A DNA stretch of 64,000 bases from a virus. The translations under genes were made by a program, and so were the position numbers. The DNA lies in IMG/VR virus record IMGVR_UViG_3300005573_000052. One strand, given 5' to 3'. The notes under the pieces are model-generated. The model saw only the letters and a list, made by a program, of their open reading frames with translations. It was not told the DNA's origin and did not search any database. Shown piece by piece: positions 53,953 to 63,446 of the stretch; positions within the stretch are counted from its first letter, which is position 1, and each line of letters starts with the position of its first letter.

Positions 53953-55755
53953 CTAGGGCGACGTGGTTTGTGGGGAGGAAGAGATGGGTTCGGTGTAAGT
54001 AGTTGGGGATGACCCGTTTAGGATAGACGTAAAAAAGGATTCGGGGGGCCAGATGTCAGTTCGCGCCTTCCAAAAGTCAACAATAGCCAAAATGGCAGGA
54101 TTGTCCCATTTGCGGGACAGGTTGGGAGTGGGGAGGCGGCGGAGGAGGGTGAAGAGGACGGCGGCTTGGAGACCACGGACCGTGAAGTAGTAGCAGGTTT
54201 CGTCATCACCTTGGCGGACAAGGGATTCGCGCCCTCGATCAATACGGGGGAGATTGAGGTCGTCTATCGCGCGCTTGATGCCAGCGATTATCTCGCGGTT
54301 CACCCCGCAGACCATAATGGTCATGGAGCCGGGCTGGTTGGAGCGGGTGACACAGCCGTCGCCGTCAATGAAGCCGCGAAGGAAGCTGAGTTTGGAAATG
54401 ATGTCGGGGAAGGTGGGAAGCTCGCAACGAAGAGTCTTGTTGACCGTGATGTTGAAATTGCGTTCTAGGTCAGCGTGCCATTCGGTGGCGCTCTCGATGG
54501 AAATACGGCACTGAGGAGTGGGACCGGCCTTAGCTCCCGGAAGATTGCATTCGGCCATGAAGTTGACAATGGGCTGTTCTAACTTGGTCTCAGCCTTGAA
54601 CCACTCAAGCAGACACCGGTCTTTTTCGGCTACTGACCAGCGAACAGCCTTGGAATTCCGGTTGATAAACAGACACCCATCAGTGCAAATCAGGCCCGCC
54701 CAGTAAGATGTGCGCGGGGTGATGGTGGAGAAAAAGGAGCGGTCGTAGTCATACTTGGGGTAGCTGCCGTATTCGCGGGTGCGAAGGGCGGTCATCGACT
54801 CAATGTGAGCTATTGCGCTCGTCAGCCCAAATGTTGCGGCGATTTCGGGTAACGGGTGGGTTTCGCGTAGGGCAGACAGGGCAATTGGGGATACGTTGGC
54901 TGACTCGACCATTTCCACATAGCGGCGCAACTTGCTCCATTTGCGTTCCAAACGGATGATGTCAAGTGACAGGAATATCTTGGCCAGCCAATAGACCTTG
55001 GCTCCGCCCACCGAGTAATTGAAGGTGCTGTCGGCCTCCTTGAAGCGCACGATTGCCGCGTCGGACTCGGGCGCCCATTGGTCAAAATGGGCCTTGACCC
55101 AAGTAAGCATCGTCTCCTTCCCGCCCAGCGAAATGTTATACTTGGTTGTGTCGGTTTCGGACACATATTCGACAATCCATCCGTTGCCGTCAATCAGTCC
55201 CGAGATGAACGCGGCGACGAGGCGCGGGTCTGAGATATTGGGTGGACGCAGGGTCTCGGTCTTGCGCGGAAAGATATTCCAGTGCTCGCCGAGCTTGGCA
55301 CAGATTTCCCCGCCGGTTATCTGCATTCGGGACAGCGAGTAGGTCTTCTTGTTACCGTCAGCGTCGGGCTTTACGAACTCGTCAAACGCGTGGTTCTCGG
55401 AGTCAAGGATGTTGGCTGTGGAGTCAAGTGCGGCGCGCACTGCCTCAAGATGAGCCCGGTCCTTGCTGGACATGTTGAAGACGAGGCGGGGCTCTCCAGA
55501 CGTGACACTGCCGTTTCCTGCGATGAACCCGGCTACAGCGCAGTTTTGCTCGGTCGGAGTGTCAAAGTAGTGCCGGTTGTGGACGGGCAGCACCTTGATG
55601 GCTATTTCCAGCTTCTGCGCCCGAGAGCGGATGGAGTCGTAAGTGCGCCCCGGGAGAAATGCCATCACCTCTCTGATGGTCTTGCAGGTGGCGAATTTTT
55701 CGCGGAGGAGGGCGTCTTCGGTGGAAGACCAAGGGGTAGAGACAGAGATAGACAT
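53953..55755 (-). CDS. Multi-LAGLIDADG homing endonuclease with Myb-like N-terminus
   Basis: WSSTED..L; AGFIAGNGS, SGLIDGNGW, AGLICTDGC, RGFIDGDGC (four motifs). Confidence 0.9.
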   Translation of the reverse strand: MSISVSTPWSSTEDALLREKFATCKTIREVMAFLPGRTYDSIRSRAQKLEIAIKVLPVHNRHYFDTPTEQNCAVAGFIAGNGSVTSGEPRLVFNMSSKDRAHLEAVRAALDSTANILDSENHAFDEFVKPDADGNKKTYSLSRMQITGGEICAKLGEHWNIFPRKTETLRPPNISDPRLVAAFISGLIDGNGWIVEYVSETDTTKYNISLGGKETMLTWVKAHFDQWAPESDAAIVRFKEADSTFNYSVGGAKVYWLAKIFLSLDIIRLERKWSKLRRYVEMVESANVSPIALSALRETHPLPEIAATFGLTSAIAHIESMTALRTREYGSYPKYDYDRSFFSTITPRTSYWAGLICTDGCLFINRNSKAVRWSVAEKDRCLLEWFKAETKLEQPIVNFMAECNLPGAKAGPTPQCRISIESATEWHADLERNFNITVNKTLRCELPTFPDIISKLSFLRGFIDGDGCVTRSNQPGSMTIMVCGVNREIIAGIKRAIDDLNLPRIDRGRESLVRQGDDETCYYFTVRGLQAAVLFTLLRRLPTPNLSRKWDNPAILAIVDFWKARTDIWPPESFFTSILNGSSPTTYTEPISSSPQTTSP

Positions 55756-55937: not shown

Positions 55938-57113
55938 TCAGAAGCTGCATCCAAACTTGGCGCGCCCCTCTACTGAGACGAAACCTTCGCGCTTGGACCC
56001 CGTCATCCCGAGTTTCTCTGACCGCACAGTAAACGTGTCGTCGTTGACAAGCGAGAATTCTGATCCCTCGTCACTTGCACTCAACCGTGCCAGATCGAAC
56101 ATCTCGCTGTTGAGACCAACAACAATTTGCTCGCTCGCCGGGTCGAATACCGACGTGGAACCACCACCAAAACCGGTGCCGAAGCCCGGGAGCTGAACTG
56201 AACCCATGGCCGTGGCGAAGGTCTGGTTGTAGGGGCGGGAAACACCCATTTCATAGACCTTGTGGAGGATGACATCAAACAGCGTGGGGATGCCACCACC
56301 GTTGAAGATTTGCTCGCGGACGGACTCGGGAGCCGCGATGGACGAGCCGCCCTGAGTGGCAACTGCGCCCTGCACGGTGTTGGAAGGCTGATACGCGATG
56401 GCGCGAATCTGGCCCATCCACTCGGGCGAACCGAGCATGTCGGTCAGTGCGCGGCGGTCGAGGACCGGGGTGCCACCCACCCACGAAGCGGTGGTGCGGT
56501 CGTAACCGATCATCATGGTGTTGAAGTCGTCCAACTGGAAGCGACCGGCGGTGTTAGCACGGGCCAACGTCAAGTTGTTGGTCGCGGTGTTGGAGGCATT
56601 GCCGTCAATGCGGGCACCGGCCAGCGAGTTGAAGAGGATGAACGACGCGTTGGTCTCGGAGACCAGCAGCACTTCCTGCACCAGACGGGTCAGACCGTTG
56701 GCGAGGTGGTCGATGTTACCGGCGCGCAAGTAGTTCTTGTTGAACGAGATGGCGCTGTCCACGGGATAGGTCTGAACGAAGAGTTCAGTTGCACCCTGCT
56801 GGAAGTTGGTGGCGGTGCCGCCCGGCTGGCTGTTGGTCCAAACGTTCAGCATGTTGCGCTGACGGACATCGAAGTAGTCGTCCAGCGGGATGGTGGACGG
56901 AGTATTGATGTCGTAAACCAGCGTGGTGAACAGGTTCGAGATGACCGGAGCCTGCTCGATGACCTGACGAATCGGACGGGTCATGACCGCCGCGAGAGCC
57001 TCGGTGGCAGCAAGGGACTCCGTCTTGTTCTTGGAGCCCATGCGCTTGACGAGGTCAAGGGAGGCAGGGGTGCGGTCCAATTGGACCCGAAGATTGCGCT
57101 TTTTGATATTCAT
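55938..57113 (-). CDS. Major capsid protein
   Basis: 391 aa, follows scaffold and decoration genes, strongest codon bias, followed by a terminator. Confidence 0.8.
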   Translation of the reverse strand: MNIKKRNLRVQLDRTPASLDLVKRMGSKNKTESLAATEALAAVMTRPIRQVIEQAPVISNLFTTLVYDINTPSTIPLDDYFDVRQRNMLNVWTNSQPGGTATNFQQGATELFVQTYPVDSAISFNKNYLRAGNIDHLANGLTRLVQEVLLVSETNASFILFNSLAGARIDGNASNTATNNLTLARANTAGRFQLDDFNTMMIGYDRTTASWVGGTPVLDRRALTDMLGSPEWMGQIRAIAYQPSNTVQGAVATQGGSSIAAPESVREQIFNGGGIPTLFDVILHKVYEMGVSRPYNQTFATAMGSVQLPGFGTGFGGGSTSVFDPASEQIVVGLNSEMFDLARLSASDEGSEFSLVNDDTFTVRSEKLGMTGSKREGFVSVEGRAKFGCSF

Positions 57114-57786: not shown

Positions 57787-57868
57787 ATTGGGTGGGGATT
57801 AATCGCTAGAGGGAGAGTTGGAAGTCTATACACCGAGCAGTCGGTGGTTTATAGAATTGGGGTGAAAA

Positions 57869-60460
57869 TTAACGCGTTTTGCGGGTGGACTTTTTGGCGG
57901 CTTCGGCGAGGTCGGCGACCTTGGTGCCACCGATGGAGGCGACTTGAGCGAAGGCTTCCATGTATTTGTCCTTCAGGCTTTGACCGCGAGCGGCGTCGCC
58001 GAGGTCATTGACCACGGGAGCATCAGTCGGATTGGCTTGGGCAGAAGCGAGAGCCTGTTGAGCAGCAGCCTTGCAAGCTTTGTCATCAGCGTCATCATCC
58101 GGCTCCTTGTCGTTCTTCTTATCGCCGAGCTTTTCACCGCCCTTGTCGGGGAAAGCGGCCTTGGACCAGCCCTTATAGAGCTTCTTGGCGCGGGCAAGCC
58201 ACTTGGCGAACGCGGCGTCATCGGCGCAGGCCTTGATCTCGTCAATCACTTCGGCGCGAGTCTCGTCGTCAAAGGCGAAATTCGCCTCGACCGTGGCCAT
58301 GCGCTCGTTGAACTGGGCCTCGGCGGCAGCGGCCTGCTGCGCGGCGACAGCCTCGTCATGGGATTTCTTGAGAGCAGCAAACTGGCGCTGCATGTCTTCA
58401 AGGGCGGCTTGTGTGGTGGCCTGAGCGGCAACGGCGTCGGCGCGCTCCTTGGCGAACTTCTCGCTGGCCTTGGCGATTTCCTCGGTAAAGAGGGCTACGT
58501 TAGCCATGGCGGTAGGAAGCTCTTCCACGGTTTTGACAGACGCAATGGTCTGCTTGATGTCATCGAGATTCATGGTAGGTGATACGGTGGGGTTGGGAGT
58601 GGAAACTGATACACCTGCGGTGGCGGTGTTTGTGAGAGTCGGCATGAGAGCGCGCCCGGCGGCGGAGGCAAAAATGGCGGCGAGACGGGCGAAAACGTCA
58701 TCCAGCGCGGCCTTGATGGCATTGTCCGTGTAAGGCGCGTTGCGACCCTTGTCGTTCAGTGCGTTGTTGGCATCCTGCTTCAGCGCGGCCTCGGGGCGCA
58801 CGGTCGGATATTGGTCGCCGATGCGAGGGTGAACGAGCTTGGTGTCGTCAGTTTGTGGCGGCATACCGGGCGTCATGGAGGTGATGGTGACATGCGGGGG
58901 CATGGCCAGCTCTTTTTCCAGTTGTAGCGTCGCGCCGTCGAAAATCTTGACATTGGTTAGCTTGGTGCCGTCCGACAGCGTAACATCCACGCCGTTGACC
59001 AGCGGCGCGCTTCCGTTGTTGGGCAATTGGATGTTGGCGAGGGCATTCTGCCACTCGGGGGTAAGCTTGAGGAAACAGGAGGAAGTCGTGGACATAGGAA
59101 TGTCGGCTGTGGGGGTATACACCTGCTCGGCAGAGGTTTGACGGAGAGGGATTTCCACCGGGTCGCCGGTATGGGGGCGGAACGAGAGGGAATTGAAGGT
59201 CATGGCGTGGCCCATAAACCGCTTGTCGCCAACGTATTGCGCGGCGCGGCCCTTCTTGGTATAGCACAGGGTTAGGTGGGGTTGAAAATCGAGCCACGCA
59301 TAGTCGTTATCCGTGGAGGTGCGAAGTAGGTGATGGAGGGTGTGGATGTCCTGTCCCTCGACCGTGACCTTGAGGACATCATAAGGGGCATCGTCGCGCT
59401 CGAAAGCGGAAACTTCGCCCATCGTGATGGTAGCCGGACCCATGTCAGCCAGTGCGGTTTGGATAGGCGCGGCATCGGCGGTTTTGATGCCGTATAGCAC
59501 GGTGGCATGGCTTTCCGTCTCCCGCCCATATTTGCCCGCCCCCTCGCCCTCCCCATAATACAAATCGTCCTCCGGGATACTCGCCGCAAACTCCAGATAG
59601 CGCGCCGCGTCGGCGGACGAGAGAGTGAACTGAGTGGAACTGCGACTATAAAGCCCGGCATCCAGCACGTCGGCCAACGGGTGGACGAAATTGGGGTTGG
59701 ACAGCACTGGAGCAATGCCCTTGACGGCTGCGGCGGGCACCGCGACAATCCCGGCCCCGAGCGGCACAATCTCGCCCCTCAGCACCCGCGCGACACGCTC
59801 GCCAGTCGATGCAATCGCCCCCTTGCCGCCATTGCACCTGAGGGTCTTGTCCCACTTCTCCCAGTCGCCGGAATCGGGTGTGATGAGTTTGGTCGCCAGA
59901 GCTAAGTCCGACTTCCCCTTGGGCAGCACGACCACATCGTAGTCATCGAACCCGACCTCGAATGACAGGGACAGCCTGCCCTTGTCGCGCGAACCGGGCG
60001 CGGCGGACTGGATGATGAAATTGCACAGGTCCTTGTCGGCGACCTTCCAGATGGCCATGGCGATGGCGATGTTGCATGGCTTGTTGGCTTCCCTCGCCTC
60101 GTCCACGGTGAGTAAGCGGTCGGTACCGATTTCGGACAGCCCAGCCTTGACGATGTAGCCCACAATCACGCCACGGTTGTGTTCGATATCGACCAGTTGG
60201 CCCTCGAACTTGGGGTAGACTCGGAGAGTGTCTTCGAGACTGACTGCGTCATCATTGAGGTTACAGACTCCGCCTACTGCCAGATTGCCAACGACATACA
60301 AAATGGTCGGATGATCCTCCGGGTTGATAGAGGAGGGAAGCAGCCCCTTCAGTCGGTCAATCGACGCGCAAATCTCGTTTCGCTCTGCATCGGAGGGCGG
60401 GTGATAGTGGCCGACTGCCTCGAAGCGGGCCTTGTATTTGGGCGTGTAGAACTCGGGCAT
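57869..60460 (-). CDS. Prohead protease/scaffold with internal 2H phosphoesterase (Acb1/gp57B-like) domain
   Basis: N-terminal DIEHNR...LSLSFEVGF protease-like region; SHATVLYG and PHLTLCY; C-terminal coiled-coil scaffold. Confidence 0.8.
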   Translation of the reverse strand: MPEFYTPKYKARFEAVGHYHPPSDAERNEICASIDRLKGLLPSSINPEDHPTILYVVGNLAVGGVCNLNDDAVSLEDTLRVYPKFEGQLVDIEHNRGVIVGYIVKAGLSEIGTDRLLTVDEAREANKPCNIAIAMAIWKVADKDLCNFIIQSAAPGSRDKGRLSLSFEVGFDDYDVVVLPKGKSDLALATKLITPDSGDWEKWDKTLRCNGGKGAIASTGERVARVLRGEIVPLGAGIVAVPAAAVKGIAPVLSNPNFVHPLADVLDAGLYSRSSTQFTLSSADAARYLEFAASIPEDDLYYGEGEGAGKYGRETESHATVLYGIKTADAAPIQTALADMGPATITMGEVSAFERDDAPYDVLKVTVEGQDIHTLHHLLRTSTDNDYAWLDFQPHLTLCYTKKGRAAQYVGDKRFMGHAMTFNSLSFRPHTGDPVEIPLRQTSAEQVYTPTADIPMSTTSSCFLKLTPEWQNALANIQLPNNGSAPLVNGVDVTLSDGTKLTNVKIFDGATLQLEKELAMPPHVTITSMTPGMPPQTDDTKLVHPRIGDQYPTVRPEAALKQDANNALNDKGRNAPYTDNAIKAALDDVFARLAAIFASAAGRALMPTLTNTATAGVSVSTPNPTVSPTMNLDDIKQTIASVKTVEELPTAMANVALFTEEIAKASEKFAKERADAVAAQATTQAALEDMQRQFAALKKSHDEAVAAQQAAAAEAQFNERMATVEANFAFDDETRAEVIDEIKACADDAAFAKWLARAKKLYKGWSKAAFPDKGGEKLGDKKNDKEPDDDADDKACKAAAQQALASAQANPTDAPVVNDLGDAARGQSLKDKYMEAFAQVASIGGTKVADLAEAAKKSTRKTR

Positions 60461-60506
60461 AGTGGGGAGGTTGACCGTTGAGGGTTAAGAGCCTATACAC
60501 CCGGCC

Positions 60507-62627
60507 TCACTTGCCGTCAAAATCCACCTTGCTCCGCATCAGCACCGAAGCCGTCCACGAGTCAACGGGGTGCTCCGGGGTGTCAAAGGTCGCGCGAATC
60601 TCGGTAATCTCGGCCAACACGTCCTTGGGCAGCTCCTTAGGAGTCTTGATGTAAGACCCCACGGCCTTCTTCCATTTGCCCGCGTCCGGCTCATTGAACA
60701 CAATGGACTGGGCGATGGACGCCGCGACCTGCTGCTGTGCGTCGGTCAGCCCACCCTCCACCTTCCACTTCTTGACCAGCGCCTCCTCCACCCCGGCCTT
60801 CAGCGCGTTCATCTCGGCCAGAGCCTCAGCCACGCGAATCATGCCAAAGTGATACTTGCCGTCGCCGGGGCGCACGATGTCGGGCTCGGTGCCATCCCAA
60901 TTGGCGGTGCGAACTTGTTTCTGCCCGATGGGCGTGGTGACCTTGCGCGGAGCCGGAGTGCCACCCGTGCCAGCGGGACGCCCCTTGCCCACGCTGCCCT
61001 TTCCACCCTCCTCATCCGCGCCGGTTTCGGGCGCAAGTGGAGTATACAACCCCTTGTCCCGCGCCTTCTTATACTCCTCCTGATTGACCAGCGACTCGTC
61101 CTTGGTGGGCAGCACACCGGTCTCGATGGCAGTATTGACCTCGTCCGCCGTAAGCAAACCAAGCTGCCCCATCTGCACATACAGGCGGTTGAGCATGGCT
61201 TCGTCCTGAATCTGGATGGGCTCAAATTCCACCGTGGGCTCGTCGCGGAAATTCATCTGCTGGCAGACCTTCTTGATCTCCGGGATGAGGAAATTTTCCA
61301 GAAAGGCGCGGCGACCCTCCTTGAGCGACTCGATGAAAATCTTGACCTTGATCGACGCGTTGGCAAACTTGGACTCCTCACCGAAGAACATGTATTGCAG
61401 CCCCTCCTTGATGTCCTTGTCCACGCGCTCATACTTGGCGGGGCCGAGTAGCTCCTTGAGGTCGGGGATGACCCATTCAGCTTTGGTGGTGTAGTCGGCC
61501 ACGAGCACGCGCCCGATGGTCTGGGACTGGAAGATGTTTTGCAAGGCCTGCAACTGCTTGGCCGAGGGAACCTGATTCCACTGGTCCGCCGCGCGCCCCG
61601 CCGTGACGAGGAGAACGACCTGTTCCATCGTGCTGGCGAGGGTCATGTCGATGCGGCGAAGCTGGAGCTTGAACTCGATGTCGTTCATGACTGGGAAGGC
61701 CATGGGGATGGCGAGGGGCTCGTAGTCGGCCTTACGGTAGAACACGTAGTAAAGGCGTGTCTGGTCGAGCGGGACGTAGATGTAGCGCCACGCGCCGCCC
61801 TGCTGAATCTGCCGCTGGATGTCCTCGGGGAACGACTCGAAGACCTGCTTGTCCTCCTCGGTCTGCGGGTTTTTCAACCGCTGGATTTCGTAAGTGCTCA
61901 ACATGCGGACGTAACCGTAGGCGTAACTCGCGCCGCGCTGGAGGTAGACCTGCATCGGATTGAGGATGATGTAGCGGATGGGCACCGTTTTGCTCTTGCG
62001 CGACGCAGCGGAGGTCTCATGGCGCATGTCGGACGAGTAGGCCGTCTTCAGCATGTTCATCCCGTCCTCGCTGATCTTACCGGAGAACTTGTAGATGAAG
62101 ACGTTGCCGGAGCGGTAGTATTCGAGGAAGAACCGGGTCATGAACTGGTTGATCTCGATGGATTCCAACCACGTCTTGATGAAGGTACGAACCCGCTTGT
62201 TGGGCGTGTTGATGATGAGGTCGGAGATGGAGAAGTCTACGAGGAGGTTGAGCAGGTTGCGCAGGGGAGCGTAATTATACGAACATTGGTAGACGAGACT
62301 CACGGCTCCGGTGGCCCCGTAATAAGCCCCGTCGCCCGAGATATCGAAAGGCATGATGCCGGTGCGGATGTTCGGGTAGACATTTGGGTCAAGAACCGTG
62401 GGGGCTGCCCCGTCACGATAACCTGTCGGATTGAACGGCCCGCCACCACACGCGGCCTTGGCGGAATAGTGAGGAGCCCCGTCAAACGCCGGTTCCATGT
62501 CAATATGCGCGGCTTGGGCGATTTGGGTGGTAGGCTGACCAGCGGTAGCGGGAGAGGAGGCCGTGACCACGATGGGCTTGCGGGGCGACTGCCAGTAGCT
62601 GGACGACTTGCGATAAGGACGGGGCAT
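60507..62627 (-). CDS. Portal protein
   Basis: 706 aa between terminase and protease; FFLEYYRSGNVF, YEPLAIPMAFPV. Confidence 0.75.
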   Translation of the reverse strand: MPRPYRKSSSYWQSPRKPIVVTASSPATAGQPTTQIAQAAHIDMEPAFDGAPHYSAKAACGGGPFNPTGYRDGAAPTVLDPNVYPNIRTGIMPFDISGDGAYYGATGAVSLVYQCSYNYAPLRNLLNLLVDFSISDLIINTPNKRVRTFIKTWLESIEINQFMTRFFLEYYRSGNVFIYKFSGKISEDGMNMLKTAYSSDMRHETSAASRKSKTVPIRYIILNPMQVYLQRGASYAYGYVRMLSTYEIQRLKNPQTEEDKQVFESFPEDIQRQIQQGGAWRYIYVPLDQTRLYYVFYRKADYEPLAIPMAFPVMNDIEFKLQLRRIDMTLASTMEQVVLLVTAGRAADQWNQVPSAKQLQALQNIFQSQTIGRVLVADYTTKAEWVIPDLKELLGPAKYERVDKDIKEGLQYMFFGEESKFANASIKVKIFIESLKEGRRAFLENFLIPEIKKVCQQMNFRDEPTVEFEPIQIQDEAMLNRLYVQMGQLGLLTADEVNTAIETGVLPTKDESLVNQEEYKKARDKGLYTPLAPETGADEEGGKGSVGKGRPAGTGGTPAPRKVTTPIGQKQVRTANWDGTEPDIVRPGDGKYHFGMIRVAEALAEMNALKAGVEEALVKKWKVEGGLTDAQQQVAASIAQSIVFNEPDAGKWKKAVGSYIKTPKELPKDVLAEITEIRATFDTPEHPVDSWTASVLMRSKVDFDGK

Positions 62628-62696
62628 GGGAGTTGGATGAAAGTGACTTTGGTTCTGACTTTATGCGGGGAGATACACCGTGGGAAGGAGGGCTTA

Positions 62697-63446
62697 TTAG
62701 ATTTGGTAGTCGCTAATCCACAAATCGTCGCCCTTTAATTGGTTGTGTTTCTGCCACATCGGAAAGAGATTACTCCAATGAAAGCATTGTTTTTGCTGTT
62801 CTGGATCGGTCAAATCAAAGTAAGTGCAGGGAAAGTAGTGATCTATGTTCCACTTGTCGGGTCCAAACCCGTAGTTGTCCCACGTCATCCCGTTTTCAAA
62901 ATTTTTTTCTAGCCACTGTTTGAAAAAATCAACGGTGCAGCCTAACAAATCCAACGTCGAAGCACTTTTCTTTTTGCGTCTCAACGCGCAGGAAAGCCTT
63001 CCTCGAAGCCTATTAGTAATTTTATACTGAATGTCGGTTTTTTCTCGTTCTTTTCTTCTCTTGCGATTGTTGGCATTAATTTCTTTTCTTCGACTCTTTT
63101 GGTATGCAGCCAATTTTTCTTTGTGGCGAAAATCGTAACTAGTCTTATTTTCTTTCACAAAGGCCCTCGCTTCTTCTCTTGTTCGGTTTTCCTTTCTAGC
63201 TTTTCGTTTCAATTCAGAAGAGTGCCCCTTGTAATATAACTGGGTGGCTGCGTAATACTCTCTGTTTTCTTCTCGCCATTTATAGACATTAGCCTTGACT
63301 CGTTCCCAATTCTTTTTCCTGTATTCCTTATTTTTGACCCGACTACACGCCCGACAAATAAACTTATAACCACTCTTGGTATACTTATCTTTGACAAAGT
63401 CTACCAATGGCTTCTCTGTCTTGCAGCAATAACACGTCTGATTCAT
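62697..63446 (-). CDS. HNH-like homing endonuclease
   Basis: LGCTVDFFKQWLE...MTWDNYG...WNIDHYFPC...CFHWSNL.PMW. Confidence 0.85.
   Translation of the reverse strand: MNQTCYCCKTEKPLVDFVKDKYTKSGYKFICRACSRVKNKEYRKKNWERVKANVYKWREENREYYAATQLYYKGHSSELKRKARKENRTREEARAFVKENKTSYDFRHKEKLAAYQKSRRKEINANNRKRRKEREKTDIQYKITNRLRGRLSCALRRKKKSASTLDLLGCTVDFFKQWLEKNFENGMTWDNYGFGPDKWNIDHYFPCTYFDLTDPEQQKQCFHWSNLFPMWQKHNQLKGDDLWISDYQI

Follow-up and report, generated by a model that had tools for sequence, protein, structure and literature searches.

In this study, we examined a gene in the minus-strand head module of a phage whose lineage is uncultivated, carried on a stretch of DNA of 64,000 nucleotides (IMG/VR record IMGVR_UViG_3300005573_000052; the whole stretch is here called the window). 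The gene encodes a polyprotein of 863 amino acids (aa) in which a 2H phosphoesterase domain lies between a protease-like N-terminus and a helical scaffold. Judged by motif conservation, the 2H domain is catalytically intact, and phosphodiesterase (PDE) activity is predicted. We tentatively favour the reading that this is a head polyprotein whose intact 2H domain is packaged, kept in the head, injected and then degrades immune messengers, a reading that we place a little short of evenly balanced. The bolder proposal, that the virion-loaded domain leaves the capsid together with the DNA and defeats immunity based on cyclic oligonucleotides ahead of any phage gene expression, which would make it the first natural virion-delivered signal-degrading enzyme, is possible but doubtful. 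The gene and its predicted parts are as follows.

57869..60460, minus strand: the whole gene (P0001), protease / 2H / small domain / scaffold polyprotein of 863 aa (open reading frame list and translation)
59696..60460, minus strand: predicted prohead protease domain of the gp21/assemblin fold, residues 1-255 (model, VIA-align and Foldseek)
59138..59656, minus strand: 2H phosphoesterase domain, residues 269-441 (Pfam, PHROG, Foldseek and profile)
59501..59509, minus strand: first HxT motif, H318-A-T320, in SHATVLYG (translation and alignments)
59270..59278, minus strand: second HxT motif, H395-L-T397, in PHLTLCY (translation and alignments)
58868..59080, minus strand: small beta-rich domain (FLKLTPEW...), residues 461-531 (AlphaFold model)
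57872..58573, minus strand: scaffold proper, residues 630-863, from M630 (alignment to the C-termini of short homologues)

The 2H domain and its active site

A search among 5.8 billion proteins returned 34 full-length homologues of the polyprotein at 42-56% identity, in all of which H318, T320, H395 and T397 are invariant, as are several neighbouring residues. Both HxT motifs are likewise invariant in a 35-member alignment of the stand-alone subfamily. A first-pass annotation of the window had proposed a domain of about 155 aa with two HxT motifs between a protease-like N-terminus and a scaffold, and both motifs lie where it had put them; its coordinates (59170-59645) correspond to residues 272-431, the limits set here being slightly wider, and the hmmsearch envelope covers residues 269-452. 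Library matches fall at residues 314-409 (Pfam 2_5_RNA_ligase2, E 7.7e-5; Acb1, E 3.2e-4; PHROG 755, 1.3e-7), all of them under the curated cut-offs.

The AlphaFold model of residues 262-560 reached a predicted local distance difference test score (pLDDT) of 86.5. Foldseek, the fold check that had been suggested at first pass, indicates a 2H fold for this model: there are 40 PDB matches at E <= 1e-3, and among those listed all are 2H enzymes or 2H-like domains, including Usb1, the poxvirus cyclic GMP-AMP (cGAMP) PDE, LigT, CPDase, Acb1 and AKAP18. Searched against BFVD, the model has phage 2H proteins as its top matches (best E 8.9e-17). A chance pair of HxT motifs is ruled out by the library matches, the invariance of the motifs and the 2H-only Foldseek matches. 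That the domain is embedded in a protease/scaffold polyprotein is borne out by P0035, a 671-aa homologue from a 181-kb relative, which aligns to residues 7-256 and 493-857 and skips the 2H segment.

Relation to Acb1 and the choice of substrate

The domain had been described as Acb1-like. When a profile of the window domain and 34 stand-alone relatives was compared with solved structures, 2H PDE-9 (9Q2G, E 2.8e-7) and FBB1 Acb1 (7T26, E 4.1e-5) came out ahead of YjcG (E 0.0085), the lead of the Acb1-group structures over YjcG and CPDase in this sequence profile amounting to at least 4 orders of magnitude. Each of the 35 subfamily members also touches Pfam Acb1. That the nearest characterised relatives are the Acb1-group enzymes PDE-9 and FBB1 Acb1 is thus supported at the level of the profile, and "Acb1-like" is a fair label for the resemblance; the label does not extend to a claim of membership of the Acb1 family, in view of a sub-cut-off family score and the order of the Foldseek matches, both of which are weighed below. 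PDE-9 and T4 Acb1 form one structural group, and both cut 3'3'-cGAMP (10.1101/2025.08.21.671373). Acb1 cleaves cGAMP, cUA (cyclic UMP-AMP) as well as cAAA (cyclic tri-AMP), and the T4 and FBB1 enzymes leave cyclic tetra-AMP (cA4) uncut (PMC9117128), so that an anti-type III CRISPR role, suggested at first pass, would come only via other substrates or a subfamily-specific activity.

Searched exhaustively, residues 268-445 gave 3,850 relatives; a word-based search aimed at short proteins related to the 2H domain found none. Large proteins dominate: 85 of the 142 new top representatives exceed 1,000 aa, and the closest 2H homologues, at 37-50% identity, include domains hosted by proteins of 1,000-6,400 aa and by a Portal_Mu+2H+LPD3 protein. 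Among five large 2H proteins that were sampled are a Kinase-PolyVal protein and fusions with a helicase and with an RNA polymerase. By its homology to 2H domains of large multi-domain and portal proteins, the window domain answers to the description of the 2H domains of polyvalent proteins. Two of its relatives deserve mention in their own right. P0054 (1831 aa), a fusion resembling multisubunit RNA polymerase beta/beta', carries its 2H domain at residues 770-935 and may be a virion RNA polymerase. P0171 (307 aa) joins a stand-alone-type 2H domain to Tad3 (PF25185, E 1.3e-31), which is known to inhibit ThsB, the sensor of type I Thoeris, and looks like a two-headed anti-defence protein.

The same comparisons also bear on an RNA substrate. 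The domain could act as a 2',3'-cyclic phosphodiesterase in end healing against anticodon nucleases, or as a Usb1-like ribonuclease (RNase) on host RNA, whether delivered by the capsid or made late. Its best Foldseek PDB matches are to Usb1, with CPDase and LigT also listed; its best Pfam family is 2_5_RNA_ligase2, slightly above Acb1 for the domain alone; an RNase function was raised by Iyer et al. 2017 (PMC5512222); and an RtcB RNA ligase in a related 219-kb phage points to RNA damage as something that matters to this lineage. We nevertheless regard an RNA role as quite improbable. The sequence profile ranks the Acb1 group above YjcG and CPDase, and according to Iyer et al. this type of 2H domain never associates with RNA ligases (PMC5512222). 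Healing of tRNA ends, which had been offered at first pass, is weakened further: a 96%-complete relative has no match to PF09414 (Rnl2-type) or PF09511 (T4 Rnl1), although the PF09511 search matched no control genome either and so does not show that family to be absent, and RtcB joins 2',3'-cyclic phosphate ends directly, so that it would gain nothing from a 2H enzyme. The RtcB gene of the relative is moreover unlinked, lying about 107 kb away. That gene (L017, G001:C1:131160-132473) is full-length (E 3.1e-84) and suggests a capacity for tRNA or RNA repair in the 219-kb phage; the 64-kb window, about a third of its own genome, contains a single 2H domain and lacks RtcB.

Protease, small domain and scaffold

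The protease-like character that had been ascribed to the N-terminus is upheld by structure comparison. The AlphaFold model of residues 1-262 has a pLDDT of 89.7, and VIA-align places T4 gp21 first (5jbl, Z 10.3, 144/165 residues aligned), followed by the proteases of varicella-zoster virus (Z 8.8), human cytomegalovirus (Z 6.8) and Kaposi's sarcoma-associated herpesvirus (Z 6.2), with the next unrelated rows at Z <= 5.7. The top Foldseek rows for the same model are all herpesvirus proteases, with weak E-values. H94 and S166, invariant across 48 sequences, are candidate catalytic residues of this protease. Pfam and PHROG gave no protease family match for the 863-aa protein, and whole-protein sequence searches of the PDB returned noise only.

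The second, smaller domain that had been noticed at first pass (FLKLTPEW...) is confidently modelled as a compact beta-rich module: residues 461-531 reach a pLDDT of about 87-94 in the model of residues 262-560 and resemble stand-alone proteins of 66-73 aa (TM 0.61-0.75). The C-terminus, previously called a coiled-coil scaffold, likewise agrees with its description, as residues 630-863 are helix-rich, give profile matches to coiled-coil proteins and align with the C-terminal scaffold regions of short homologues that have neither insert. The gene lies between the portal-like and the major capsid genes and has the scaffold fused to it, the setting of a prohead protease gene. We take it to encode the phage's head-maturation polyprotein, consisting of a serine protease of the gp21/assemblin fold and a helical scaffold.

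The 2H domain as an optional insert

By hmmsearch, 35 of the 48 family members carry the 2H domain. P0035, without it, keeps the small domain, and a shorter homologue (P0042, 568 aa) has neither. In the protease-domain tree the 2H-less P0035, P0037/39 and P0038 fall inside the carrier clade (support 95/85), and P0038 is the sister of a carrier, P0022 (support 96/87). Since 2H-less relatives nest among carriers, the 2H domain is accessory and dispensable for head building. In this polyprotein family the linkers are hot spots for insertion; besides the 2H domain, four homologues (P0006, P0011, P0013 and P0016) have DUF6582 (PF20223) after the small domain, and P0009 has a Cys-rich, zinc-ribbon-like segment before its 2H domain. 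The family thereby provides a comparison set of 35 carriers and 13 collinear non-carriers.

A position in a linker region that accepts other inserts would suit a module that serves the scaffold core as a spacer or structural part and in which catalysis is irrelevant. We judge this highly improbable: both HxT motifs and several of their neighbours are invariant despite an overall identity of 43-54%, the module, missing from close relatives, is dispensable for assembly, and we reject a spacer-only function because the catalytic residues do not vary.

Putative internal promoters and nested products

The window has 15 occurrences of the motif GGTGTATA where 0.65 would be expected; most stand before genes, and many structural and endonuclease genes have one shortly upstream. 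A variant of this motif, GGTGTATC, occurs 6 times against 1.16 expected. Both look, from their number and placement, like a phage-specific late promoter. The sites to which the argument refers are listed here.

692, 15307, 28022, 37580 and 44312, plus strand, and 53026, 55812, 57827 and 60494, minus strand: examples of GGTGTATA sites
60494..60501, minus strand: GGTGTATA, late-promoter-like motif 33 nucleotides upstream of the polyprotein ATG
59116..59123, minus strand: internal GGTGTATA, encoding Q-V447-Y448-T, 21 nucleotides before the in-frame M456
59093..59095, minus strand: ATG of M456, at which a nested product of small domain and scaffold may start
58608..58615, minus strand: internal GGTGTATC, encoding G-V617-S618, about 35 nucleotides before the in-frame M630
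62672-62679: GGTGTATC, 45 nucleotides upstream of the portal gene

The two sites within the polyprotein gene are conserved beyond the window. A GTGTAT core stands at the same internal place in 6 lineages for the first site and in 12 for the second, and an in-frame Met follows each conserved core, 2H-less forms included; two distant loci of about 32% identity (L013 and L014) have no such motif at the internal sites. The metagenome scan contributed five further loci, two of which duplicate IMG/VR contigs. The two sites are read in different frames (VY and VS), the Val of the second site is always encoded by GTA, a rare Val codon in the GC-rich genes, and VY is the sole conserved element of the otherwise variable linker after the 2H domain. 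A core kept in two frames, together with the rare codon, implies constraint on the nucleotides. This suggests internal late promoters that would give one product of small domain and scaffold and another of scaffold only, and with two such promoters the full-length, 2H-bearing protein would be the minority form. As a separate observation, the leaders at 60461-60493, 57787-57826 and 59096-59115 (minus strand) are C-rich and contain no purine-rich Shine-Dalgarno sequence (for example ...cctccccact ATG), which hints at unusual translation initiation in the phage or its host.

Packaging and delivery of the 2H domain

If it behaves like any protease-scaffold fusion, the full-length polyprotein would have to enter procapsids; from there on, we infer the survival, retention, ejection and substrate of the 2H fragment. 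Release by maturation cleavage inside the capsid, with delivery at injection, had been suggested at first pass. In the mechanism that we propose, the scaffold tail would co-assemble the full-length protein into the procapsid, as a minority beside the shorter scaffold products that start at M456 and M630. The protease would then cut the variable linkers, for instance at a (D/E)-A junction that is conserved just before the 2H domain and is a candidate protease site; the P-E that follows the small domain, conserved in part, is another. The folded 2H domain, of about 20 kDa, would be too big to leave through the capsid pores and would stay behind as an internal head protein. Retained in this way, it would enter the next host with the DNA and hydrolyse nucleotide messengers there before phage genes are expressed, its likeliest substrates being the 3'-5' cyclic di- or trinucleotides of CBASS-type systems (antiphage signalling based on cyclic oligonucleotides). 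Before assembly, it may in addition be active in the cytoplasm at a late stage of infection. A further possible cleavage site was noticed in the capsid protein, where A-A-x-E-A-(L/V/I)-A-A recurs at residues of about 30-45 across ten related loci, one of them with Q for E; it could be a gp21-like maturation site or a structural helix.

We favour packaging because the same type of 2H domain recurs on proteins that share a place within the head, because the active site is invariant and because the T4 internal proteins, Alt and the P1 Dar proteins provide precedents. It also agrees with Iyer et al. 2017, who predicted that 2H domains of this type are packaged and injected and either degrade signalling nucleotides or act as RNases (PMC5512222).

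A competing account holds that the unassembled polyprotein degrades messengers in the cytoplasm while head proteins are being synthesised, when and where assembly proteins set off CBASS-type sensors, and that the domain is then destroyed or lost at maturation and never delivered. Escape mutations from type I CBASS fall in prohead protease, capsid and tail fibre genes, and the Bas13 prohead protease's scaffold domain, expressed by itself, causes CBASS-dependent toxicity (10.1101/2023.05.21.541620). The polyprotein gene bears a late-promoter-like motif. Yet simultaneous expression could do without covalent insertion of the enzyme between protease and scaffold, portal fusions and polyvalent proteins, which have a location inside the head in common, bear the same 2H subfamily, and a 2H form that internal promoters would make scarce fits a packaged enzyme better than a bulk cytoplasmic activity. 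We hold this account to be unlikely as the full explanation, and it is compatible with capsid delivery, the two not being exclusive.

Several points weigh against packaging and delivery of a messenger-degrading 2H domain. Proteases of the gp21 type often destroy core proteins, and the common degradation of core components equally favours the late cytoplasmic account. The alignment of homologues has no conserved acidic cleavage site after the 2H domain, which leaves the released fragment undefined, and hhalign found no significant match between the protease profile and T4 gp21. For the substrate, the domain scores 24.3 bits alone, and 20.9 bits in the whole protein, against the Pfam Acb1 family (PF23474), whose cut-off is 27 bits and is passed by some close relatives (P0093, 38.2 bits; P0062, 43.6 bits; P0059, 28.5 bits); Foldseek puts Usb1, cGAMP PDE and CPDase above Acb1. 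A sub-cut-off Acb1 score combined with a structure ranking headed by Usb1 allows more than one kind of substrate for the 2H domain, and certain viral 2H groups cut 0/18 of the messengers tested (10.1101/2025.08.21.671373). A search of 185,579 species genomes found no relative and so gave no clue to the host.

Enzymes known to break down the messengers of bacterial immunity (Acb1, Apyc1 and the ring nucleases) are, to our knowledge, made after infection starts. Were the packaging proposal true, a capsid-borne messenger-degrading enzyme would be active from the first second of infection, and the idea of the T4 internal proteins would extend to signalling immunity. There would also be a twist in the choice of carrier, as type I CBASS is reported to be triggered by this class of protein; the connection with prohead protease/scaffold proteins as triggers of CBASS is suggestive. 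The gene would further represent a natural design for capsid targeting, with the cargo placed between maturation protease and scaffold tail.

Comparison with known systems

The window domain shares the 2H fold and paired HxTxxY-type motifs with Acb1 (T4 gp57B; FBB1, 7T26) and with 2H PDE-9 of Burkholderia phage BCSR5 (9Q2G/9Q2Y). Whereas these are stand-alone, ordinary cytoplasmic proteins of 144-165 aa, the window domain forms part of a head polyprotein, falls short of the Acb1 cut-off and bears an additional N-terminal SSTQ strand and helix that are conserved.

Members of the same subfamily by direct homology are the 2H domains that Iyer et al. 2017 described in polyvalent proteins and in MuF and portal fusions, and the predicted logic is common to both, namely effectors packaged in the head and directed against nucleotide signalling or RNA (PMC5512222). 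The carriers differ: in the window it is a prohead protease-scaffold gene with the protease N-terminal, whereas the assemblin-like peptidases of Iyer et al. occur only at the C-termini of polyvalent proteins (PMC5512222). Fusions of 2H domains to portal and MuF proteins, and assemblin-like peptidases in polyvalent proteins, were thus already published in 2017, and the protease-2H-scaffold architecture is not described there (PMC5512222). The literature that we searched contained no 2H domain inserted in a canonical prohead protease-scaffold gene, conserved in a lineage and accompanied by nested scaffold starts.

A partial parallel is gp87 of Arthrobacter phage Kharcho (WIC89133.1), listed as a 2H PDE plus protease (CATH 1at3) in a supplementary table of Doherty et al. 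2025. As in the window gene, a 2H domain is joined to a herpes-protease-like domain in a head module, after the portal gene; unlike the window gene, gp87, at 379 aa, lacks a scaffold and has its 2H domain towards the N-terminus (about residues 87-224). This 2H domain is only distantly related to that of the window (hhalign 80%), and the match of the other gp87 domain to the window protease profile is insignificant by hhalign. Read from the sequences, gp87 is an independent and differently ordered fusion.

Nested protease-scaffold genes are familiar from lambda C/Nu3, Mu I/Z and herpesvirus UL26/UL26.5, in which an N-terminal protease is fused in frame to a scaffold and shorter 3'-coterminal products are made, the protease reaching the procapsid via the shared scaffold tail. 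None of these is known to have an unrelated enzyme between protease and scaffold, and the window gene differs further in having apparently two internal starts, as predicted here. For pre-made cargo, the T4 internal proteins with Alt, and DarA and DdrB of P1, are described as counter-defence or host-modifying proteins that are packed in the head, where the prohead protease trims them, and are ejected with the DNA (PMC5512222; PMC12810830). They are encoded by separate genes and rely on a short N-terminal capsid-targeting peptide or on assembly partners, whereas the targeting of the window domain would come from its fusion to the scaffold.

Genomic context

The minus-strand head module of the window comprises the portal-like gene (706 aa), the 863-aa gene, a 207-aa gene and the major capsid gene (391 aa). 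The two flanking genes that define the setting of the polyprotein are these.

60507..62627, minus strand: upstream neighbour, portal-like protein of 706 aa (weak phrog_2739 portal match, E 7.6e-4)
55938..57113, minus strand: downstream neighbour, major capsid protein of 391 aa, Mu GpT-like, HK97 fold (ESM Atlas)

Assignment of the capsid protein to Mu GpT-like clusters comes with an ESM Atlas feature score of 0.98 and a structure TM of 0.86, and the protein is kept in related loci. The related 219-kb phage has an equal gene order, consisting of terminase, a portal-sized gene, the protease-scaffold gene, a small gene and the capsid gene. The window is phage DNA, and elsewhere it contains genes for a tape measure protein, a lambda J-like tip protein and homing endonucleases. 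Among 50,697 GenBank phages there was no DNA match to the window, no match to the 391-aa capsid protein (0 matches) and one weak protein match to the 863-aa protein (LR756511, residues 316-446).

Two endonuclease-type genes flank the head module. A homing-endonuclease-type gene of 600 aa, LAGLIDADG/HNH-like, follows the capsid gene (53953-55755, minus strand), and an endonuclease VII/HNH-like gene of 249 aa precedes the portal gene (62697-63446, minus strand); a related phage also has a LAGLIDADG gene after its capsid gene (L003 12419-13396). In the 2H-less 181-kb relative, the region upstream of the protease-scaffold gene (L001 4200-7967) holds five open reading frames (521, 345, 61, 229 and 89 aa) where the window has the single 706-aa portal-like gene, and the portal there may be interrupted or rearranged.

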